Positions 5,186 through 63,809 of a DNA stretch of 64,000 bases are shown here, in pieces. Position numbers and translations under genes: made by a program. Position 1 is the first letter of the stretch; the number at the start of each line of letters is the position of its first letter. This DNA comes from a virus. The DNA lies in the IMG/VR virus record IMGVR_UViG_3300045988_111022, one strand, 5' to 3'. The notes under the pieces were generated by a model. It was not told the DNA's origin. It did not search any database and worked only from the letters and a program-made list of their open reading frames with translations.

Positions 5186-5216
5186 AAATAGGACCTCCTT
5201 TTTGTGCAAAAGCATG

Positions 5217-5271
5217 AATCTCACTAAAATGAGATTATCACATTGCTATCTCACAAAAGTGAGATTATAAT
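5217..5271. promoter_or_regulatory. Two palindromic operators overlapping a sigma70-like promoter
   Basis: AATCTCA-N6-TGAGATT (5217-5236). ATCTCAC-AAAA-GTGAGAT (5248-5265). -35 TTGCTA at 5243-5248, 17-nt spacer, -10 TATAAT at 5266-5271. Confidence 0.7.
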
Positions 5272-5319
5272 ATATCTAACAAATGATTCAAACACCTGTT
5301 AGATAGAAAGGACAATACC

Positions 5320-5523
5320 ATGACGAATGTTTACATTGACAGCCGCCGGGATGGGTACTCTCCCAGCCAGTGCCACGACACCATGACGGTGGGGGAGTTG
5401 ATTGACATCCTGAGCCAGTACGACGAAGACCAGCCCGTCTACATTCGCAACGACAACGGCTACACCTACGGGAGCGTCCAGATGGACAGCGTTACCGAGG
5501 GAGAGGAGGACGAGGACGAATGA
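5320..5523 (+). CDS. Hypothetical small acidic protein (67 aa)
   Basis: RBS GAAAGGA. First gene of the rightward operon. Confidence 0.6.
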   Translation: MTNVYIDSRRDGYSPSQCHDTMTVGELIDILSQYDEDQPVYIRNDNGYTYGSVQMDSVTEGEEDEDE

Positions 5524-5780
5524 GACTTCTTGTTGAGTACACATCGCATGGCCGCGGTCCAGCGGCTCCGCAGACCTACAGCACCACGCTGGACATTGTG
5601 GACGATGTAGCGGAGCGGCTGTTAAAGGCCAAGACGCCGTACACATTCCGGGAGCGGAAGTACTGCACACGGGAAGCGCTGATTCTTGCATTCCTGATTT
5701 ACGACATCGAGAACCTGCAGGAACGGAGCTTCGGAGACAACGACCAGATTTTGAGCATCCGGCGGGATAGCCGGAACTGA
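5520..5780 (+). CDS. Hypothetical protein (86 aa)
   Basis: ATGA start/stop overlap with the previous gene. Confidence 0.55.
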   Translation: MRLLVEYTSHGRGPAAPQTYSTTLDIVDDVAERLLKAKTPYTFRERKYCTREALILAFLIYDIENLQERSFGDNDQILSIRRDSRN

Positions 5781-5947: not shown

Positions 5948-6292
5948 ATGATGTTCGACAAAGAGCTTATGAAGCAGCTGGCCACCATTCCAACCCAAAA
6001 TCGGGAGGAATGGTTTGCCGAGCGCGACAAGCTGGAAACGCTTGCCGTCGAAATGACCCGCATAAATGCGAAGGATATGGTGCAAAAGTACGGCATCGCA
6101 CGGGTTCTGAGGGTGCTGGCGGCGACAATCAAACAAAATCCCAAGGATTACGATGCGGATGTGGTGGAAATGGCCGGATGGGTGCCGCCCGTCCGGGCGG
6201 GTCGGGATGCGGAGATGTGGTTCTGCTCAACCATCCACCGGGCATACGTCCAAGACCTGTTTCGCCAGTATGCGAACCTGCGCAAGCTGTGA
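5948..6292 (+). CDS. Hypothetical protein (114 aa), possibly a conjugative-element-type (DUF3849-like) domain
   Basis: Coupled ORF. The family assignment is only a weak recollection. Confidence 0.55.
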   Translation: MMFDKELMKQLATIPTQNREEWFAERDKLETLAVEMTRINAKDMVQKYGIARVLRVLAATIKQNPKDYDADVVEMAGWVPPVRAGRDAEMWFCSTIHRAYVQDLFRQYANLRKL

Positions 6293-6308
6293 GAAAGGAG
6301 CCTAAACC

Positions 6309-6560
6309 ATGAAGTACGTCATTTTTACCTACGACATCCGCATGAAAGGCAAGGAAGACGAAGCCTGCATGACCGTCCTGCTGGATGATGACCGAGCAGC
6401 GGTCGTTAAGGCTGCATACGATAACCGGCAGGGGAGCAGCGAGATTGAGGACATCCTCTTGCGGTGCAAGGTCGATGACCTGTGCGCCGCCTGTGAAGCG
6501 CTCCGGGGGCGGAAGTACCTTCGCAACAGCATCAAGTGCGTGGAGATCGAGGAGGCTTGA
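6309..6560 (+). CDS. Hypothetical protein (83 aa)
   Basis: RBS AAAGGAG. Compact operon context. Confidence 0.55.
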   Translation: MKYVIFTYDIRMKGKEDEACMTVLLDDDRAAVVKAAYDNRQGSSEIEDILLRCKVDDLCAACEALRGRKYLRNSIKCVEIEEA

Positions 6561-6563
6561 GCC

Positions 6564-6755
6564 GTGAACATTGAAATTCAGTATCAGGCCGAGGATGGCG
6601 AGATTCAGTATTACCACTTTGAGTCGTGGGAACTGGCTGAAGACGATGCCTTTCGGGAGGCCATGCAGGCATTCCGCAGCACTCGCACAGGAAAGAATAG
6701 GATGCTCTCTATCCGGGATGCATCGATTGGCGCAGGCCGCAACTGGAAAGAATAA
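6564..6755 (+). CDS. Hypothetical protein (63 aa)
   Basis: GTG start immediately after the previous stop. Confidence 0.45.
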   Translation: MNIEIQYQAEDGEIQYYHFESWELAEDDAFREAMQAFRSTRTGKNRMLSIRDASIGAGRNWKE

Positions 6756-6857
6756 CCCGCCTGATGATGGCCGCTGGTATCGGCCGAAACCATTTTCGTG
6801 GCATCACGAGGATGGTCGCGGGAACCAACACCGCAAACCAAGGAAAGGAAGATTCAC

Positions 6858-7190
6858 ATGAAGTATGAAATCTACCAGCTGAAAGAGGACACCATGGAGC
6901 AGGTAAAACTGCGGTTCATGGCGTCCGATCAGGCCGCACAGCTGGGCGGCATCCACCGGGAGAACTACCGTCTGGTGTACGAGGGTAATGTGGAAACCCG
7001 AAAGGACGCACAGCAGACGCTTGATGGCTTGTTCCGCAAGTTTAACATCGACAGGCCCGCAGGCTTCGAGGGCCACAGCTTGAGCGTGTCGGACATCATT
7101 TACCTCGCCGATGGGGAATCCTCCGACTGGTGGTTCTGCGATGCTTACGGTTGGAAGCTTCTGAGTGGAGAAGAATGGGGGCAGACCTGA
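6858..7190 (+). CDS. YodL-like domain protein
   Basis: MKYEIYQLK...LRF.....Y.LVY.G......TLD.LF.KFNIDRP.GF.GHSLSVSDIIYL matches the YodL-like signature (PF14191, from memory). Confidence 0.7.
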   Translation: MKYEIYQLKEDTMEQVKLRFMASDQAAQLGGIHRENYRLVYEGNVETRKDAQQTLDGLFRKFNIDRPAGFEGHSLSVSDIIYLADGESSDWWFCDAYGWKLLSGEEWGQT

Positions 7191-7393
7191 TGCGCCACTA
7201 CACAAAAGCGGAGTGGGGCAAGATCCCGGAGGCCTACAAGGGCCGCTGGGAGCCGACGCCGTTCAACCTTGAGCGGGTGAAGAGCGGGGAGCTTCCGGCA
7301 GAGTACATCGGCAAACGGAACACCATCGTCAATGACGAGCATCACGGCACGGTGCTTATCACCGAGGACGCGCACTTCGTAATCGACGAATGA
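7190..7393 (+). CDS. Hypothetical protein (67 aa)
   Basis: ATGA overlap with the YodL-like gene. Confidence 0.5.
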   Translation: MRHYTKAEWGKIPEAYKGRWEPTPFNLERVKSGELPAEYIGKRNTIVNDEHHGTVLITEDAHFVIDE

Positions 7394-7500
7394 GTACAAT
7401 CGCTCAAAGAGGCGATTTGAGCCGCATTTTGCATCAAACGACAAATTCCTTGCGGAAGAATCAAAAACGCAAAATAGAGCCATCTGAGCAGCTCTAAGAA

Positions 7501-7884: not shown

Positions 7885-8165
7885 ACACTTGTACAAAACA
7901 AATGTCAGATTGAAAGGGTCAGCGCTTTCCATTCAGCGCGTTCCCCGAAGCCCCTCTGCAAAGGGGCTTCAACGTACCACGCAGTACAAACCATGCAAGT
8001 TGATTCCTCCTAATGACAGGCATCGCTGCAAAGCGCAGCGCCGATACTGCAAATCGGCGGTGCGCAGGTAAAGCGATTACTCCCCAAGAGCTTCTGCTTA
8101 ACAGCTTAAAGGCGGGGGAACGCGTTGAATGGTGGGTACTGGCCCTTTTAGTCTATCAAAAATCA

Positions 8166-8188
8166 AACAAGTGTTCAATACATTTGTT
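8166..8188. promoter_or_regulatory. Two more AACA-N2-TGTT-type sites upstream of the cro-like gene
   Basis: AACAAGTGTT at 8166-8175 and TACATTTGTT at 8179-8188, followed by AGAT as at 3081-3084 and 5301-5304. Confidence 0.5.
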
Positions 8189-8219
8189 AGATAAATCTTT
8201 GTCTGGAAGGAGAAAAAAC

Positions 8220-52433: not shown

Positions 52434-53468
52434 ATGGCGGATGCACGTTCGGGAGCGGAACTGGCCGACTATTCCAAGGTGGCATTTTCGGTTGGGGGCG
52501 TTCGGCAGGAAATTTCGATTGACGATTGGCGAAATGGATGGGCCGCAATCGTTGGCGGCTTGAACGGAAAACCGACAAGTCAACAGTTTAACATGGTGTT
52601 CTATATTCTGTCTGTGTTGCTAAATCAGAACATTTCGGATGTTTCGGCGGTTAAGAGTACGGCAAACGCAGCATTGCCGAAAGAAAGCTTTACGGCGGAA
52701 CAGATTGTGGCGCTGCTTTCTGAGTATGGGCGTATGTCTGGATGCAATGCAGATATGCTGGACGGAAAGCACGCGGACGCATTTGCTGCGGATAAGCACA
52801 GCCATTCGGCAAGTGACATTACAAGCGGGAATTTGCCGATTGAACGCGGCGGTACTGGCGCTGGCACCTCTGCTGATGCGTGTCGTGCTCTTGGCGCTAT
52901 GCGGAACACAGGCGGTACCTTTACGGGAACGGTCTATTTTGCAAATGGCACAGCGCACTACGTCAGCTCTGCGGGAGATGCGCATTTTAGATCGGTGACT
53001 GCGAGCGAGGACATTCATGCAAAACGAGTGTTTGAAGCGGTCTACAACGACTACGCGGAGCTGATGCCCCGCGGCGAGGACACCGAACCGGGTGATATTA
53101 TTGCGCTGGATACTAACAGCCGGCAAGAAAAATATGTCAAAGCAACCAATCTTTCGAGCCGGATTGCTGGAATCCATTCGGACGAATACGGAATGCTGAT
53201 CGGCGGAGAGCGGGTCAATGATGGGGAGGATTTCTTGAAAAAGAATCTTCCCCGTTTTATTCCTGTTTCGCTTGCCGGACGTGTCCACACAAAGGTCATT
53301 GGCCCGGTAAACACGGGAGACTGCATTGTGCTTTCCCATATTCCGGGGGTTGGCCGTGCGGCAAAACCGTGTGAATATGTTGACCCGTGCAAAGTGGTTG
53401 GTTATGCGGTTGAGGGTGACAATTTGACTGAACAGCGTCGGCTTAAAGTCAGAGTGAGAGGTGCTTAA
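52434..53468 (+). CDS. Tail fibre protein
   Basis: DKHSHSASDITSGNLPIERGGTGAGTSADACRALGA is the classic fibre motif. The C-terminal region resembles an intramolecular-chaperone/peptidase G2-type domain. Confidence 0.75.
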   Translation: MADARSGAELADYSKVAFSVGGVRQEISIDDWRNGWAAIVGGLNGKPTSQQFNMVFYILSVLLNQNISDVSAVKSTANAALPKESFTAEQIVALLSEYGRMSGCNADMLDGKHADAFAADKHSHSASDITSGNLPIERGGTGAGTSADACRALGAMRNTGGTFTGTVYFANGTAHYVSSAGDAHFRSVTASEDIHAKRVFEAVYNDYAELMPRGEDTEPGDIIALDTNSRQEKYVKATNLSSRIAGIHSDEYGMLIGGERVNDGEDFLKKNLPRFIPVSLAGRVHTKVIGPVNTGDCIVLSHIPGVGRAAKPCEYVDPCKVVGYAVEGDNLTEQRRLKVRVRGA

Positions 53469-54580
53469 TGGCTAACTGGGGGCAAAAAGTCTATCCCTCG
53501 GACTACTCCGAAATCAAAGCCTTGCTCAAGGCTGAGATAGGGAGACGCGGGAAAACGGAGGGAACAGCGCGAGGGCAGAGCGTCGGCAGCATGGCGAGCT
53601 ATAACGACTCTGCATACGACTTCTCGACACAACCGAAAGCAGGCGCGTACATCAAAAACGAGCACATCCAAAAAATTACGAAGCCTTTGGATGCAATCAA
53701 AGGAACATCGACTACGCCCGGGAATGGGGTGCAAATCACAGCGAGCAGGCTGAGTCAAGCAGCGGCGGTGTTGAGTGAGCTGAGCGCAATCCCGGAAACC
53801 GCTACATCAAGCGGGTGTGCTGGCCGCTGTTCAGGCCTATGTTCTACGGGATGCAATACGGCTTGCACGAGCTGTACAGGCTCCTGTACTGGGAGCTGCA
53901 CAGGGTCTTGCGTGGCATCGTGCGCCAATGATTGCGCTGGCGGATGCAAGGGAAGCTGCCAGGGAACGTGCATGGGGTCCTGCACGGGAACCTGCACTAG
54001 AGCGTGTGCAAATAACTGCTCCAGCACTTGCACGGGGTCCTGTACGGGGTCCTGCACGGGTTCGTGTACGGGAACGTGCACAAAGGCGTGTGCGAATGAT
54101 TGTGCCGGCACTTGCGCGGGGTCCTGTACGGGAAGCTGTACGGGAAGCTGCACTGGAAGTTGCATCGGAGGCTGTAACACAACTTGCACGAAGAATTGCG
54201 CAAATAACTGTTCTGGTTCCTGCTCCGGCGGATGTTCGGGCGGCTGCTATGGTTCGTGTGATGGGTGCTCTTCGACTTGTGAGGGCGGCTGTGGAAGCAG
54301 CTGTTCTGATAATTGCTCAAGTAAATGTATCCAGCAATGCAGTTCGACGTGTGCGAATGACTGCTCCGGCAGCTGTGTGAACCTTGGTTGTGCATTCAAC
54401 TGCGGAAGTGACTGCTCTAACCATTGCTCCGGCGGCTGTTCTGGAGGCTGTGGTTCTCAATGCAGAAGCGGCTGTGACGTCTTTTGCACGGGGTGCAGTT
54501 CAACGTGCGCAGATGACTGCTCCGGATCCTGCAGCGGTGGTTGTAGTGGCTGCTCTGGCTTCCTGTGGAGCAAATCGTGA
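53468..54580 (+). CDS. CXXX-repeat cysteine-rich protein (370 aa, 63 Cys)
   Basis: Cys-free N-terminal 116 aa, then Cys at nearly every 4th residue from aa 117 to 362 (CTGSCTGSCTGSC...). TAATG coupling to the fibre gene. Confidence 0.85.
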   Translation: MANWGQKVYPSDYSEIKALLKAEIGRRGKTEGTARGQSVGSMASYNDSAYDFSTQPKAGAYIKNEHIQKITKPLDAIKGTSTTPGNGVQITASRLSQAAAVLSELSAIPETATSSGCAGRCSGLCSTGCNTACTSCTGSCTGSCTGSCVASCANDCAGGCKGSCQGTCMGSCTGTCTRACANNCSSTCTGSCTGSCTGSCTGTCTKACANDCAGTCAGSCTGSCTGSCTGSCIGGCNTTCTKNCANNCSGSCSGGCSGGCYGSCDGCSSTCEGGCGSSCSDNCSSKCIQQCSSTCANDCSGSCVNLGCAFNCGSDCSNHCSGGCSGGCGSQCRSGCDVFCTGCSSTCADDCSGSCSGGCSGCSGFLWSKS

Positions 54581-55189: not shown

Positions 55190-55492
55190 ATGAAAGCCAT
55201 TAAATTGACCACGGCGGAAAGCGAAGCGGTGGAGCGAGCTTACTATGAAGCAAGCTCTTTTGAAGCGCTGATGGCGGTTCTGTGCCGCCAGCTTAACGCG
55301 GATGCAAATCCGGAAACCGCAAAGGTGATCCGCCATTATGCAGAACTGTGCCGTGCGGCTCAAATGAAGCTGAAGATGGTACAGGAAATGGTGATCTCCC
55401 GGTATCTTGACCATCAGACGTCGGCGGGTGTGCAGTACAGGTTTGATTTTGTTCGAGAGGAGGTCGTTCTCCTTGAAGCAACGGCGAATTGA
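55190..55492 (+). CDS. Small accessory protein of the CXXX-repeat modification cluster (100 aa)
   Basis: AAGGAGAAG RBS. Sits immediately upstream of the rSAM gene. Confidence 0.6.
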   Translation: MKAIKLTTAESEAVERAYYEASSFEALMAVLCRQLNADANPETAKVIRHYAELCRAAQMKLKMVQEMVISRYLDHQTSAGVQYRFDFVREEVVLLEATAN

Positions 55493-55505
55493 GGATTATG
55501 GAAAC

Positions 55506-56816
55506 ATGGTCCAAAGGCTGTATGCGCGCGATACTGCGGCTGAGAACCGCGTCTGTTGCCGGAACATTACGTTCCAAGTGACAAGCGGGTGCAATCTCAG
55601 GTGCTCATACTGCTATGAGCACCACAAGAGCGTTGAGCGAATGAGCATCGAGACCGGGCGAAAGGTCGTAGATTACATCCTTGACCTGTACGAGAAAAAT
55701 GAGTCCGATTTCGTAAATCAGAATACGCGGGCAGTTGTGCTGGATTTTATTGGCGGAGAGCCATTGCTTGAAGCCGAACTGATTGAGCACATCTGCGACT
55801 ACTGGTTCTCAGAGTGCTACCGCCGAGAGATTCCGCTTGCGCCGTTCACGAGGATCAGCTTTGCGACGAATGGCAAGTTGTGGTTTTCTTCGGCGGCGCA
55901 GCACCTGTTCGCAAAATACCATGAGATGATGTCTGTGACTGTCAGCATTGACGGCGTTCAAGAGTTGCATGACAAGTACAGAGTGGATGAGCATGGGATT
56001 GGCAGCTTTTCGCTGGCATGGAAGGCATTTCAGGCAGGAAAAAAGGATTTTGGGTGGCTTACGTCCAAGATGACCTTTGTTCCGGGATCTTTTCAGTACA
56101 TTGCCGACAGCATCAAAATGATGCTGGATGAGGGATGCGTGGAAATCGCTTGCAACTACGCTTACGAACCTGTCTACACTCCCGAAGATGGCCGTACACT
56201 GTATGAACAGATGCAGATGGTCTCTGACTACATTATTTCCCGACGAATGGATGTCACGATTACGATGCTGGACGACCTTTTGGGCGGACAGGCTAAGGAT
56301 GACAATAATTTCTGCGGCGGTACGGGAGCGATGCTGTCGTTTGCACCGGATGGGAGTGCCTATCCCTGCATTCGGTACGCTCCGATTTCCATTGGCGAGG
56401 AAAAATCGCAGAAAGTCCGTTTCGGCAGCATCTATGATGGACTGTATGCCACGGATGCCCAGCGTCAGGCAAAAGCGGAATTGGATGCCATCACCCGTAC
56501 ATCTCAATCTCCGCAGGAGTGCTTAGAGTGCCCTGTATCAGCTGGCTGTGGCTGGTGTAGCGGCCTTAACTATGAATTATTCGGTACGGCCAATAAACGC
56601 TCCACAGCCATTTGTTGGGCGCACAAAGCGCGTGTTCTGGCAAGCTGTTACTATCACAATCGCCGTTATCTGGAAATCGGAGACCGTCTCCCAATCGAGG
56701 TGAGGCTTCCGGCCGAAGATGGGCTGAAGATTCTGCCCGCCGAGAAATGGGCGGAGCTGATGCACATTGAGACAGCGGCGCTCATGAAGTTTGCTGATGA
56801 AGTCGGGATTAGTTGA
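55506..56816 (+). CDS. Radical SAM / SPASM-domain peptide maturase
   Basis: CNLRCSYC (CX3CX2C) at nt 55590-55613. C-terminal SPASM-type CLECPVSAGCGWC plus a further Cys cluster (NFCGG...YPC). Confidence 0.88.
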   Translation: MVQRLYARDTAAENRVCCRNITFQVTSGCNLRCSYCYEHHKSVERMSIETGRKVVDYILDLYEKNESDFVNQNTRAVVLDFIGGEPLLEAELIEHICDYWFSECYRREIPLAPFTRISFATNGKLWFSSAAQHLFAKYHEMMSVTVSIDGVQELHDKYRVDEHGIGSFSLAWKAFQAGKKDFGWLTSKMTFVPGSFQYIADSIKMMLDEGCVEIACNYAYEPVYTPEDGRTLYEQMQMVSDYIISRRMDVTITMLDDLLGGQAKDDNNFCGGTGAMLSFAPDGSAYPCIRYAPISIGEEKSQKVRFGSIYDGLYATDAQRQAKAELDAITRTSQSPQECLECPVSAGCGWCSGLNYELFGTANKRSTAICWAHKARVLASCYYHNRRYLEIGDRLPIEVRLPAEDGLKILPAEKWAELMHIETAALMKFADEVGIS

Positions 56817-56830
56817 AAGGAGGGAGCGCA

Positions 56831-57736
56831 ATGGCAATCCTCATTGCCGATACCAAGTTGGAGACCGAAACCGATGCTTGGTATATGTTCTATGCTGACA
56901 CAAAGGAAGACATACAAACATTGCCGACGAGTACATCTACAGGATCTTCTTATCGGGTAAGAAAGTATGCTCGACCGACGAGCGTTGCATACTGCATAGA
57001 AGAAGCAAGGCAGTATATGCTGGATAGCAAAGATCGGTGGCGCGCAATGTGCGGTCTTTCTGATAGCGTTTTGGATGCCTTGAGTAAAAGTGCTGCAGAA
57101 CTTTTGGCTATATGCAAGGACACGGAGAACTTTCGGGATGAAGCGGTGAAAAGTGCTGAAAAGGCAGAGAAAGATAAAGAAGCATCTGCTGCCAATGCTC
57201 TCGCTGCAGATAGAAGCGCGAAAAAAGCCAGTGAGAGCGAGGGCGTTGCTTCTCAAAAAGCAGAAAATGCGAAAGAAGCAGCAGAAGCTTCAAACAAATC
57301 CGCTGAAGAAGCATCGAAAAGTGCGGCAGGTGCACTTGCAAGTGAGCAGGCTGCGTCTGAGAGCGCACGACTTTCCTCTATTAGCGAAGCCGCTTCAAAA
57401 GATGCAATGAATGAGGCTAAAGATTTTTCAAATTCAGCGTCGAAATCTGCTAGAGAGGCTCTTGAATCAAAACGTGCTGCAGAAGACGCTGCCAATAGTG
57501 CCTCCGAATCCAGCCTTGCCGCCGCAAGTTCGGAGAGAGCGGCAACAGAAAAAGCGGCAGAATCATCTGAACTGGCAATAAGGACCGAAAAAAATGCAGA
57601 GTTATCAAAAGAAAGCAGTGAAACGGCTATTAAAGCAGCTGCAGAAGCAAAGAAAGCTCTGTCAATGCTGTCATTCGCTTTTGGAATCGATGATGAGGGC
57701 CGTTTTTCGCTGTTTGCGAAAAAATCTATAACATAA
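56831..57736 (+). CDS. Ala/Ser/Glu-rich coiled-coil fibre-like protein
   Basis: Long SA..A..SA..A low-complexity helix. GAAAGGAGGGAG RBS. Confidence 0.65.
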   Translation: MAILIADTKLETETDAWYMFYADTKEDIQTLPTSTSTGSSYRVRKYARPTSVAYCIEEARQYMLDSKDRWRAMCGLSDSVLDALSKSAAELLAICKDTENFRDEAVKSAEKAEKDKEASAANALAADRSAKKASESEGVASQKAENAKEAAEASNKSAEEASKSAAGALASEQAASESARLSSISEAASKDAMNEAKDFSNSASKSAREALESKRAAEDAANSASESSLAAASSERAATEKAAESSELAIRTEKNAELSKESSETAIKAAAEAKKALSMLSFAFGIDDEGRFSLFAKKSIT

Positions 57737-57811
57737 ATGGTTATAATCTAACAAAAATGATACGAACAGATGTTTTGTTGATATAATCGGCAATGGAAAG
57801 GGGAACGAGCA

Positions 57812-59542
57812 ATGGACGGTTGGGATTTTGTTGGTCATCCGGTGACGGATGAATCGGCAAAGGAAGCAATCGAGCAATTAAAAAGGCAAAACGACATTCT
57901 GACTGGCATAGCTGCCGGTAATGCTGGTGCTGAGTTCGTTGACGCAATCTTCGATGGCCTGTTGGATGGTCAGAACACGAGTGAGGTGTTCTGGAATTGG
58001 TGGCCACTGTCTACCGGAAACGGCGCGACAAAATACCAGCGCTTGGAGCGTTTCGCCAAGATGCTGGCCAAGTATACAAAAGGCAAAACCTACACCGTGC
58101 GCTTTTACGGCGATGATGTGAGTAGCGACTATACAGGCACTCCGCTGGATGACTTGGCGGACGGCCGTGAAGCTGCGCCGCTCCTGACGGATACAAGCCC
58201 TGAGACAGCGGATTGGTCTGAGGAAGACCCGTTTACATGGTATATCCGTGCGAATGCGCTTTCTCTGGAAGATGGCACCATGAATGTGCTGGCGCTGGAG
58301 GGCGAAGCAGAGTTTGACCTTTCGGGCGAGACGGCTCCCGTCTACTGCTTTGCGCTGGCGTTGACCATGAAAGAATGGGAGGACGGCACCTATATCTATA
58401 ACAGTTGGCGTACCTTCTCCGGCGGTGGCTATGAACCTATGGCTGGTGATGTAGCCCCGGACAAGAGCCGCCGCTGGCTGACATGGCACCCTGCGTTCCA
58501 TGGCGGTAAAAATTCCAAGGGCGGCATGACCAGCGGTGCCGGACTGCCCCCGATGCCGTGGACAAGCGCCAACGATGCCATCACTCTGGCTCGTAAAATC
58601 ACGGCTTATGATGCCTTGTGGACTGACTGCGACCAGCAGTATGTTTTGGCTCAGTGGCGGCTGCGCCATTGGACGCTGAGCAACAGCGGCAAGCTGGAGG
58701 GCTGCACGTCCTACAATTACCAGTATACCCCGGCGGTGGCCGAGACCGGAGTAAAGCGTGTGCTTGCGACGAAAGCGCAGGGCGCAAACTTCCTCGTGGG
58801 TTCTGCGGTATGTATGGGCGAGCGCGGCGAAAATACCAGCACAGACCGCAATTTGTCCTATAACCATGACATTTTCAACTGGGCCAAGATTTCCAGCATT
58901 ACCAATGTGACCGTGAACGATACGGAGTATGTGGCTCTGAACCTTGAGCTGGATGCTCCCATTGACACCACAACCACAATGCTGGTCTCTACTATGCCGT
59001 GGGAGTCCGGCACGACTGAGGTGGTTCCGGGTCACAGCGATGGATGCCGTGGTAATCTGACGAATGGCAAATATCCGTACCGCGTGGCGGGCATCGAGAT
59101 GCAGATTGGCGCATACGTCGAGCAGCTGGACCCTCTGTGGAAAGCAAGCCTCGTCGATGATGACCATTGGCATTACGATGTGTTCTCCTGCAAGAGCGGT
59201 GAGAAGCAGGTCGGTTCTATTTCTTCGGACTATGCCCAGACCGGCTCCTTCGACCTGAACGACAAGGCAACTTGGTCGTGGCATTATATCCGCAAGCTGG
59301 GCAAGCTTGGCGCGGAAGCCATGATGTATGAAAAGTTCAATGGCAGTGGCTCCACCTATGTACGGGCTGCGTTCATTTCGCCCGGTTCGGCGGGCGTGTA
59401 CGCCCCTTGGCGCGGTGGCAACCTGGATGACGGTGCTAACTGCGGCCTGCCTTGTGCGAATGGCAACAATGGCCCCGGCACGGCGAACTGGAACGGTGTG
59501 CCTCGGCATGCTGATGATAAAATAGCCCTCAAAAGGGCATAA
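57812..59542 (+). CDS. Receptor-binding / tail fibre protein with a C-type-lectin-like (DGR-target-like) C-terminus
   Basis: C-terminal ...PWRGGNLDDGANCGLPCANGNNGPGTANWNGVPR resembles variable regions of DGR targets. Confidence 0.7.
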   Translation: MDGWDFVGHPVTDESAKEAIEQLKRQNDILTGIAAGNAGAEFVDAIFDGLLDGQNTSEVFWNWWPLSTGNGATKYQRLERFAKMLAKYTKGKTYTVRFYGDDVSSDYTGTPLDDLADGREAAPLLTDTSPETADWSEEDPFTWYIRANALSLEDGTMNVLALEGEAEFDLSGETAPVYCFALALTMKEWEDGTYIYNSWRTFSGGGYEPMAGDVAPDKSRRWLTWHPAFHGGKNSKGGMTSGAGLPPMPWTSANDAITLARKITAYDALWTDCDQQYVLAQWRLRHWTLSNSGKLEGCTSYNYQYTPAVAETGVKRVLATKAQGANFLVGSAVCMGERGENTSTDRNLSYNHDIFNWAKISSITNVTVNDTEYVALNLELDAPIDTTTTMLVSTMPWESGTTEVVPGHSDGCRGNLTNGKYPYRVAGIEMQIGAYVEQLDPLWKASLVDDDHWHYDVFSCKSGEKQVGSISSDYAQTGSFDLNDKATWSWHYIRKLGKLGAEAMMYEKFNGSGSTYVRAAFISPGSAGVYAPWRGGNLDDGANCGLPCANGNNGPGTANWNGVPRHADDKIALKRA

Positions 59543-59758
59543 GCGTTTCATTGCGCCTGTGGCTTGACCACTAAGATCATGTTATACCGACACCATGCAG
59601 CTGAGCGTTTCGAGAGATACGGACGCATTGGTGAGAGCGTGGCCGCAGTTTTTGGGACTGCGTGGCGGCGAGTAGTAGAAATCCGTTCTGCCTGATTTAA
59701 GGCCGGGGACGGCAACCGAAAGTCGTTGAACATCAGCAAGTTTGGAGGCTTTAAGGAT

Positions 59759-61003
59759 ATGAAAACAAAGAGGTTCTTACAGCTCACGCACGCAATGTGT
59801 GAGCAGGCTGTCCTTGAAGCGTTTGATAAAAAATGGTTCCGCCGGGATTACCTCGCCACGGTGGAGAAATATGGAGGTGTGAGCCGTGCAGAATTATCGC
59901 GCGCCGCCCGGTTAAACGACTGGAATCTGCGTTTGGAAGTAGTGAACAGCATTGCTCTCGAAATGGAACAACGCGTGGAAGACCTTGTGGAAGGCGAGAC
60001 GGACGACCTCGACCTTGAACCTGTGAGCGTATTTTATCGAATTGATGGGATCAGCATGAAACGGCGTGAGCTGTCCAACTGCTGCCCGATGCACCAAGCC
60101 TTTGGACATTTGGCGGTGATTGGACTGCGGCCGCTGCTTCGCGCAAAATTGCTTCCGTATCAATTCGCCAGCATCCCCGGAAAGGGGCAGATTGCTCTAA
60201 AACGTCAGGTTGAGCGTTGGCTTCGCAGGAAAAGCCTTGGAATTCAACACGCAGTCAAGCTGGATGTGCAGGGAGCGTATGCCCATACGAAACAGGCTGT
60301 CGTGATGGATATTCTGCGGCGTGAGATTCCGGGTGCGACATGGTTGCTGGCGGTCATCAAATGCTTGCTAGCGATGGCACCGGGCGAGGGACTGCTCATT
60401 GGCGGATACCTCGAAGCGTGGCTTTTCAACCTTGTTGCCAGCTATATGCTGGTAAAGGTGTTGAGCTATGCAAAGACTCGCCGAGGAGCGTCTACGCCGT
60501 TTGTGACCCGCAGCGGCAGCTATATGGACGACCTTGTTCTACTTGGGCGACGATGGGCCGATATACAAAGTGCGGCCCGGAAATTGACTAAGTGGGCGCT
60601 GGCTGAATTTGGGCTGACCATAAAAACCGAGTGGGTTCGGGTGGATTTTCTAAGCGCGGCTGAAGAACATCAGCGCCGACACATGACTGGAGCGGCGAAA
60701 GGGTGTCCGGGCTTGGATATGGCTGGCTATGTGATGCACCGTACCTACACCACGATACGCCCCAGAATTTTTCTGAGGGCTCGGCGGCAGTACATTCGAG
60801 CCAAGGCTGATGTTTCACGAAATGGATATGTGCCGGTCTGGCGGTCATACAAGCTGGTCAGCTATAACGGCTATTTTGACTGGACAAAATCTCGTGCAAT
60901 CAGCGAAGCCCTAAAACAGAAAAAGCTGTTCACGGCCGCAAAAGTAGCAATCCGCGTAACGGCACAAAGAAATGCAATGAAGAAAGTGAGGATAGCAGCA
61001 TGA
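59759..61003 (+). CDS. Reverse transcriptase, DGR-clade-like
   Basis: KRRELSNCCPMHQAFGH, SIPGKGQ, KLDVQGAYAH, GLLIGGYLEAWLFNL, SYMDD (YMDD at nt 60521-60532), GLTIKTEW. Confidence 0.85.
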   Translation: MKTKRFLQLTHAMCEQAVLEAFDKKWFRRDYLATVEKYGGVSRAELSRAARLNDWNLRLEVVNSIALEMEQRVEDLVEGETDDLDLEPVSVFYRIDGISMKRRELSNCCPMHQAFGHLAVIGLRPLLRAKLLPYQFASIPGKGQIALKRQVERWLRRKSLGIQHAVKLDVQGAYAHTKQAVVMDILRREIPGATWLLAVIKCLLAMAPGEGLLIGGYLEAWLFNLVASYMLVKVLSYAKTRRGASTPFVTRSGSYMDDLVLLGRRWADIQSAARKLTKWALAEFGLTIKTEWVRVDFLSAAEEHQRRHMTGAAKGCPGLDMAGYVMHRTYTTIRPRIFLRARRQYIRAKADVSRNGYVPVWRSYKLVSYNGYFDWTKSRAISEALKQKKLFTAAKVAIRVTAQRNAMKKVRIAA

Positions 61004-61332
61004 TTTTTATCGAGAACCTTGACCATAATCCGCAGGCAGTAACGCTGGAAAAACTGCCGGATGGTACGGCTTGGCTGTACCTGCGTAAGGACGCTCATGA
61101 GGTGCGAACCGAGGCTCCCGAAGGAGAGCAGGGCGGTACTTCGTGGGAATGCACCACGGCGCTTTGTAAGTTGGGCGCTGATTATACGGAGGAGACCGAA
61201 GAGAGCATCACGGCTGCAGCTGATGATTGGTGGGTCTATGCAGAAGCGTGGACGACTGCCGATGACGCTGCGCCCTCTCTGGAAGAGCGAGTGAGCGTGC
61301 TGGAAACCATGTTCATGGGAGGTGAGCTGTAA
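61000..61332 (+). CDS. XkdW-position small acidic protein
   Basis: ATGA coupled to the RT stop. ...PSLEERVSVLETMFM. Confidence 0.55.
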   Translation: MIFIENLDHNPQAVTLEKLPDGTAWLYLRKDAHEVRTEAPEGEQGGTSWECTTALCKLGADYTEETEESITAAADDWWVYAEAWTTADDAAPSLEERVSVLETMFMGGEL

Positions 61333-63173: not shown

Positions 63174-63229
63174 ACACCCCCGTCACCTGTCAGATGAAAA
63201 GTCGAAACAGGTGACGGGGGTGTTTTTTG
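63174..63229 (+). terminator. Rho-independent terminator
   Basis: 17-bp perfect stem ACACCCCCGTCACCTGT/ACAGGTGACGGGGGTGT, then T5. Confidence 0.9.
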
Positions 63230-63331
63230 CTTTTTATGCAATAAAGAATCACAAAATTCGTGATAATCTAACAATCCCCTGATTTTTCCAGAAGAAAAGA
63301 ATATCTTTTATTGTAAGGAGCGAGCGAGTAT

Positions 63332-63601: not shown

Positions 63602-63809
63602 GGGAAAGGGCGGCTTTCGGGTCGTCCTTTTTCTGTTGCGTGACATTTGTATGAAACAAATGTATTATAATAATGTATATGGCAGTTGAATGGAGCATTT
63701 GATGGTCCGCCGGGGTGAATTTTGTGCCACCTTGAAAAAAGTGCGGTTTTGTGGTATTCTTTATGTGACAAATGATTCATTCAAGTGTTATATAAAAGTA
63801 GGTGAGCCG

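Follow-up and report, generated by a model that had tools for sequence, protein, structure and literature searches.

A probably decayed Avd-less diversity-generating retroelement from a common Faecalibacterium prophage family, with its variable region and template repeat merged into a single copy

The diversity-generating retroelement (DGR) of Bordetella phage BPP-1 is made up of the variable region (VR) of mtd, avd, the template repeat (TR), a Spacer (Sp) RNA and the reverse transcriptase (RT) gene brt. In the Bordetella element, the site of priming is provided by the Sp RNA (10.1101/2023.10.23.563531) and a GC-rich hairpin located shortly downstream of VR is used for target recognition (PMC3240598). 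DGRs devoid of Avd are also known, architecture A accounting for 29% of a curated set in which one RT lineage is entirely without avd (PMC5758913). DGRs are highly prevalent among the temperate phages of Faecalibacterium prausnitzii, where Avd homologues are found in Mushu and Lagaffe only (PMC5883640; PMC11792537). The locus described here lies in the IMG/VR virus record IMGVR_UViG_3300045988_111022, of which 64,000 nucleotides were analyzed (hereafter the window; all features given below are on the + strand). It consists of a tail-fibre-type gene followed by a DGR-type RT gene, and it probably represents a DGR of an ordinary type, without Avd, that has decayed; it belongs to a common Faecalibacterium prophage family that is absent from the named GenBank phages.

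An initial annotation of this DNA had pointed out that the RT gene is not accompanied by a visible TR/VR pair, and indeed none can be found in the 64-kb window, either by a diagonal scan tolerating mismatches at adenines or by blastn self-comparison. Likewise, the 216-nt gap upstream of the RT gene does not contain a TR match, the scores of an adenine-tolerant Smith-Waterman comparison with the fibre gene (22-25) being those of shuffled sequences (23 +/- 2). The window harbors a single 149-nt DGR repeat (59365..59513), present in one copy only, which can be aligned with VR as well as with TR from intact relatives and is flanked upstream by fibre (VR)-type sequence and downstream by post-TR-type sequence. 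This repeat is the TR of its own lineage (L006, L007, and L056-L065) except for a T at position 12 (59376) and a G at position 20 (59384), both of which are TR-adenine sites that vary among VRs. Of the 22 TR adenines, 20 are unchanged; among these is the A at position 144 (59508), where a T is found in all ten VRs of the contigs encoding the identical RT. Since about two thirds of the adenines are altered in a typical VR, the 3' part of the repeat cannot be VR-derived. The VR-derived part can be delimited to the 5' end (59365..59384), considering its fibre-type upstream flank and its two A-to-N changes, and the most probable crossover interval is the A-poor stretch that follows (59385..59419), which is usually identical in VR and TR.

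At this interval, about 298 bp of sequence found in the relatives is missing from the window, and the motifs GGGGGTGTAACCCCC, GGAGCAATGAAGCGGCGTGT, and GCTTGTGGCGATGG of the relatives' spacer are absent. Together with the fibre stop codon, the lost segment comprises three quarters of VR on its 3' side, two hairpins, a terminator-like stem of 14 bp and the sequence flanking TR on its 5' side. Judged from its sequence, the stretch 59404-59505, initially taken for a variable region, is TR fused in frame to the fibre gene; its richness in AAC and AAT codons is a hallmark of TR, and what the window lacks is the true 3' part of VR together with the VR-TR spacer. TR had been sought in the 216-nt gap, which was the wrong place. 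Among the three options put forward at the time, that of a cryptic or decayed DGR was the correct one, and that of a TR located beyond the window is refuted.

The fibre open reading frame (ORF; 57812..59542, 576 aa) runs in frame through TR and stops 10 codons past it, so that its final 59 codons are now encoded by TR and by 29 nt of post-TR flank (59514-59542, i.e., the new last 9 sense codons and the stop). The ORF ends with ...APWRGGNLDDGANCGLPCANGNNGPGTANWNGVPRHADDKIALKRA before the stop codon and the C-terminus of the protein reads ...GVPRHADDKIALKRA, versus ...GVPRLAGSGKKRG in intact relatives, whose fibre is 574 aa long. The peptide that had been quoted for the presumed variable region is encoded at 59405-59506, one base off the position given for it.

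The intact form of the element was recognized in relatives, for which five genomic and 48 viral loci were fetched and, later, ten contigs encoding an RT protein identical to that of the window. One of the fetched loci is a chromosome of F. prausnitzii, with an RT 99% identical. Repeat pairs were detected by blastn self-comparison filtered for adenine-specific mismatches, and a clean TR/VR pair is present in 41 fetched loci and in Butyrivibrio phage Arawn, or in 51 loci of the family when the ten identical-RT contigs are included. In the fetched loci and the ten contigs, the pairs are 111-151 nt long with 9-21 mismatches, nearly all of them at TR adenines. The layout is constant: the VR (~149 nt) at the 3' end of the fibre gene is followed by a spacer of ~149 nt, the TR (149 nt), 245 nt of non-coding sequence and the RT gene. 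In this intact form, the fibre and RT genes are 520 nt apart, as against 216 nt in the window. All ten identical-RT contigs show this intact layout with a 574-aa fibre; VR is hypervariable among them, pairwise identity being 99.5% for the TRs and 90% for the VRs, and 146 of the 148 mismatches between TR and VR are located at one of the 22 TR adenines. Because these contigs carry diversified TR/VR pairs, the very RT of the window is part of an actively diversifying DGR. The locus belongs to a widespread Avd-less DGR family of prophages of Faecalibacterium and related Clostridia. The DNA of the window has no match in GenBank phages, where the tblastn matches of the RT are all below 40% identity.

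Two conserved GC-rich hairpins with compensatory changes and GTAA/GTAG-like loops can be found after VR in the relatives. Between the fibre stop codon and TR, a terminator-like hairpin with a 14-bp stem and a T-rich tail is also present (2544-2575 in contig L056), this stem being restricted to the clade of the window. By analogy with the DGR of Bordetella phage, from which the steps of the complementary DNA (cDNA) pathway are drawn (10.1101/2023.10.23.563531; PMC3240598; PMC7826257), TR and the structured RNA downstream of it would be transcribed in the intact element, and the RT would copy this transcript into cDNA with misincorporation opposite adenines. The cDNA would then replace VR at the 3' end of the fibre gene, with the GC-rich hairpins just past VR presumably aiding target recognition.

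The region from TR to the RT gene (59514..59758, 245 nt), the first 29 nt of which now belong to the fibre ORF, is a conserved structured non-coding region in the position of the DGR Spacer. Its mean column identity is 80% across lineages whose RTs are 65-72% identical. Compensatory changes are seen in 17 of 58 predicted pairs, 97.7% of the cells are paired and none of 500 shuffles reaches the score. No Rfam family is matched. Conservation and covariation fit a Spacer-like cis element, the equivalence to the Bordetella Sp being one of position only.

With regards to the origin of the single repeat, the two 149-nt direct repeats may have recombined within the A-poor stretch that they share, either by homologous recombination or by replication slippage, and the loss of ~298 bp would leave one chimeric repeat with the 5' end of VR and the 3' end of TR. 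This recombination mechanism, like the loss of function discussed below and all steps of the cDNA pathway, is one that we infer. A real deletion between VR and TR is favoured over a collapse introduced during assembly, and is considered probable. Evidence for it comes from a second assembly, the Logan assembly of SRR22135731 (L055), which shows the same junction, an identical 576-aa fibre and the same two VR-type bases. As this contig also differs from the window at 16 scattered sites in 5825 nt, it represents a different genome that inherited the same allele.

The competing explanation is that the genome carries an intact VR-spacer-TR arrangement and that the assembler jumped from VR to TR in a shared exact stretch, dropping the 298-bp loop. 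The crossover falls exactly where VR equals TR, and DGR microdiversity is known to complicate assembly (PMC5883640). However, the junction and the two VR-type bases recur in the second genome, which was obtained with a different pipeline. For Logan contigs, k is 31 and the graph is simplified conservatively, every 31-mer being unique within an accession (PMC12424806), so an intact loop at full coverage should break the contig rather than vanish; moreover, the intact arrangement is itself carried by one Logan contig (L064). The longest exact run shared by VR and TR ranges from 19 to 55 nt in 52 intact loci, which is below the final k of common metagenome assemblers and too short to confuse those finishing at k >= 55. 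Independent collapses of a similar kind, differing in the details of the junction, are seen in no fewer than five further lineages (L009, L022, L049, L066, and L067). In L067 (ENA ERZ28621409), the collapsed locus has an additional 7-nt insertion (1580-1587) that frameshifts the fibre gene into ORFs of 381 and 205 aa, as real decay predicts, and the fibre gene is also split in L066 (Logan ERR14025656). Heavily deleted remnants of the prophage family are common as well (L068-L070).

Several observations nevertheless weigh against a real and disabling deletion. All copies examined come from short-read assemblies, most or all of them metagenomic, and the intact loci behind the run-length estimate are biased toward well-assembled ones. 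Five IMG/VR contigs (L006, L007, L018, L024, and L026) begin 35-168 nt upstream of TR, which makes the repeat a demonstrated assembly hazard. The collapsed fibre protein is rare, being found in 2 blocks of the collection versus 2689 for the RT. Finally, homing independent of the hairpin is known to take place at low efficiency in Bordetella (PMC3240598). Taken with the evidence above, an assembly artefact is regarded as unlikely, though by no means negligible. No description of a recombination deletion between VR and TR was found in the literature examined, which is not proof of absence.

If the deletion is real, targeted hypermutation has probably ceased in the window. A separate recipient site no longer exists, and the recipient-type 3' end and the hairpins are gone; retrohoming would thus be disabled despite the intact RT and RNA. 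With the terminator-like hairpin also gone, TR, the structured RNA and the RT gene would be co-transcribed with the fibre gene. The fibre itself would stay fixed in the Asn-rich form encoded by TR, carrying a new tail of 11 residues. In agreement with this loss, the window and L055 have the same fused repeat (100% identity) though the two genomes differ at 16 other sites, indicating that no diversification has occurred since the deletion.

A working single-copy element, in which the fused TR would serve as both template and target, or in which the RT and the RNA would be re-used for defence or cDNA production, is very improbable. In its favour, neither the RT nor the structured RNA is damaged, and both would now be co-transcribed with the fibre gene. 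On the other hand, only two of the 22 TR adenines are changed and both changes lie in the 5', VR-derived part, the repeat has remained identical in two otherwise diverged genomes, its 3' end is of the TR type (A at position 144, where all VRs have T) and the hairpins for target recognition have been lost. Models of defence RTs match weakly. The identical RT works in canonical DGRs elsewhere, and this also argues against the suggestion that the RT had acquired a non-coding RNA with a new function, since the ten identical-RT contigs have canonical TR/VR pairs and the upstream RNA occupies the Spacer position. Returning to the deletion between VR and TR, a broader proposal can be made, namely that this collapse is a real, recurrent and heritable off-switch of DGRs, encountered in six or more lineages of a single prophage family; bolder still, the RT and the RNA would remain active after it, either on the fused copy or in a different role. 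This proposal is speculative, and the odds are held to be clearly against it.

The RT ORF (59759..61003) encodes an intact protein of 414 aa, its ATG being preceded by GGAGG. The catalytic motif YMDD (60521-60532) and the motif 4 variant IGGYLEA (within LLIGGYLEAWLFN) are present as described at the outset, as is the overlap of the RT stop codon with the next ATG at 61000 (ATGA). The two ORFs that follow have no Pfam match at E <= 0.1, leaving their earlier designation as an XkdW/XkdX-like pair without backing. Motif 4 is kept across the RT family as IGG-Y-L-(E/D)-(A/S/G), with I214 and G215, which form the (I/V/L)G core, invariant in 21 family members. The SQ dipeptide of the DGR motif (I/V/L)GxxxSQ is absent throughout the family, E/D followed by A/S/G standing in its place. 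Among DGRs in general, the (L/I/V)G core is almost invariant, whereas the SQ dipeptide varies in 15 of 155 elements (~10%), where SP, SH, NQ, PA, AQ, or VQ can be found (PMC3521204). In the Bordetella RT (bRT), Ile181, i.e., the first residue of this core, promotes adenine mutagenesis, and the substitution Q187P leaves the misincorporation frequency unchanged (PMC7826257). SQ is thus not strictly defining for DGR membership, and the present family shows adenine-specific VR changes without it.

Neither is Avd required. No Avd-like Pfam match can be found in the 9-13 neighbouring ORFs, confirming what had been noticed in the window, and the relatives have no additional gene between fibre and RT. 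Absence of Avd is a known architecture that represents 29% of DGRs (PMC5758913), and most DGRs of F. prausnitzii phages are also without it (PMC5883640). Since residues 11-77 form four helices in the AlphaFold model of the RT (pLDDT 90), an Avd-like domain fused to its N-terminus was considered and set aside; bRT aligns along nearly the whole length, so that the extra sequence is small. Hence, regarding the three features initially held to depart from a standard DGR, the lack of Avd and the change of SQ amount to known variation, and the missing pair, which is genuine, is explained by the deletion and by the labelling of TR as VR.

The RT is placed by both its sequence and its predicted fold in the DGR RT clade, as had been proposed from its motifs and from its position next to a receptor-binding-type fibre gene. 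When the family profile is compared with the whole PDB, the sole match is the Bordetella DGR RT (bRT, 8ub7; E 7e-10), which is also the only match of the single sequence. The same structure is the best fold match of the model (TM 0.77 normalised to the target, E 8.6e-14), ahead of the RTs of G2L4, group II introns, DRT9 and retrons. The RT further matches the phage RT family phrog_1423 (E 3.6e-62), and has hundreds of close homologues in gut metagenomes, the exact protein being present in 2689 blocks of the collection. The genes around it are tail and lysis genes. A Rfam scan of 59000-61100 revealed no group II intron, no retron or DRT non-coding RNA and nothing else of relevance. That the RT could be of the retron, UG/DRT, abortive infection (Abi) or group II intron type and merely adjoin the fibre gene can be dismissed: besides the lack of SQ, a weak match to Pfam RVT_1 (E 0.0057) and PADLOC hits to a generic RT (2.3e-6) and RT_UG4 (2e-4), far weaker than the phage RT family match, would speak for it, but it is refuted by the adenine-specific TR/VR pairs adjoining this RT family in 51 loci, in addition to the bRT matches and to a score of 20 bits versus a cut-off of 300 for the group II maturase model TIGR04416.

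In the prophage remnants L068-L070, which keep only the 3' half of the RT gene and the lysis module, chimeric ORFs of 467 aa can be found (6001-7404; P0039-P0054), in which 220 aa from the N-terminus of a tyrosine integrase (Arm-DNA-bind_4 and Phage_int_SAM_3) are fused in frame to residues 168-414 of the RT (97% identity). For one of these chimeric proteins, P0052, the collection has 27 blocks.

The product of the fibre gene, identified as the DGR target from its ORF, its phrog matches and the comparison of its C-terminus, is a tail-fibre/receptor-binding-type protein. It matches phrog_17147, a family of unknown function, with an E value of 1e-212, and weakly the tail-protein family phrog_5302. 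Its C-terminus has no Pfam match and, with either the single sequence or a profile, no PDB match, and no DUF6273, Mtd or FGE match was obtained for the fibre at the sequence level. The AlphaFold model of the C-terminal 216 aa, inspected for a C-type lectin or Ig fold, is unusable (pLDDT 33).

Directly upstream of the fibre gene, a low-complexity protein of 307 aa rich in Ala, Ser, Glu, and Lys is encoded (56813-57736). It has no Pfam match, and its central part is the only segment of the region without a DNA-level alignment to the relatives. Operator-like motifs based on ATCTAACA...TGTTAGAT and accompanied by a neighbouring TATAAT-like box are distributed over the window (5213-5308, 8154-8196, 57746-57775, 63217-63274, and 63755-63797), one copy lying just upstream of the fibre gene, and a 58-nt repeat links 57697-57754 with 63217-63274. 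These repeats may constitute a regulatory site shared by the fibre-RT unit and early or immunity genes. Further upstream, but still within the tail module, a 370-aa protein consisting mostly of Cys-X-X-X repeats (53468-54580; matches to TIGR04117 and TIGR04114) is encoded two genes before a radical S-adenosylmethionine (SAM)/SPASM maturase of the family with CXXX-repeat targets (55407-56816; TIGR04115, E 1e-91, just below the cut-off). The repeat protein may be a component of the phage structural module that is cross-linked by this maturase, which is of the type acting on ribosomally synthesized and post-translationally modified peptides (RiPPs).

Mergers of VR with TR recur and appear to be heritable, and they would be a natural means of switching DGRs off. 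If the collapse is true, it leaves an intact RT that looks like an orphan next to a receptor-binding protein fixed in its template-encoded state, and it would account for one kind of "orphan" DGR-type RT. Finders relying on the presence of a TR/VR pair miss such collapsed elements, and a TR rich in Asn codons can be mistaken for a VR. The suggested decay route is inherent in the design of DGRs, i.e., two direct repeats a few hundred bases apart. Considering that the family is very common in human-gut data and diversifies at adenines with neither Avd nor SQ, it offers a natural test case for the RT features that are needed.

The element can finally be set against the systems described so far. 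It resembles the DGR of Bordetella phage BPP-1 in the fold and sequence of the RT and, at the level of the family, in the presence of VR in the 3'-terminal part of a gene of the tail receptor-binding type, in adenine-specific mismatches and in the succession of TR, structured non-coding RNA and RT. In the intact relatives, GC-rich hairpins are also located downstream of VR. Unlike BPP-1, it has no Avd, its RT is longer (414 versus 328 aa, the N- and C-terminal regions being somewhat extended), motif 4 reads IGGYLEA instead of IGSLTSQ and, in the window, VR has merged with TR and the hairpins are deleted. Among the classified architectures, it is similar to the architecture A DGRs, with the order target-VR, TR, RT and without an Avd, HRDC, MSL or CH1 gene (Wu et al. 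2018, PMC5758913), whereas the collapsed state of the window copy is unlike the architectures described there. The DGRs of F. prausnitzii phages share the host genus and are also carried by temperate phages (Cornuault et al. 2018, PMC5883640; PMC11792537), yet neither the DNA nor the RT of the window matches any GenBank record of a Faecalibacterium phage. A more distant counterpart is the RT locus of Butyrivibrio phages Arawn and Idris, whose RT shows 25% identity and, as in the present family, comes next after a tail-module gene, from which a non-coding gap separates it, and is accompanied by an adenine-specific TR/VR pair. In Arawn (MN882550.2, L054), this pair is 111 nt long (5234-5344 and 5476-5586) with all nine mismatches at TR adenines, and the phage thus seems to harbor a DGR laid out in the same way. 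It differs from the element of the window in its host and phage, in its intact arrangement and in an RT annotated only as "putative reverse transcriptase."

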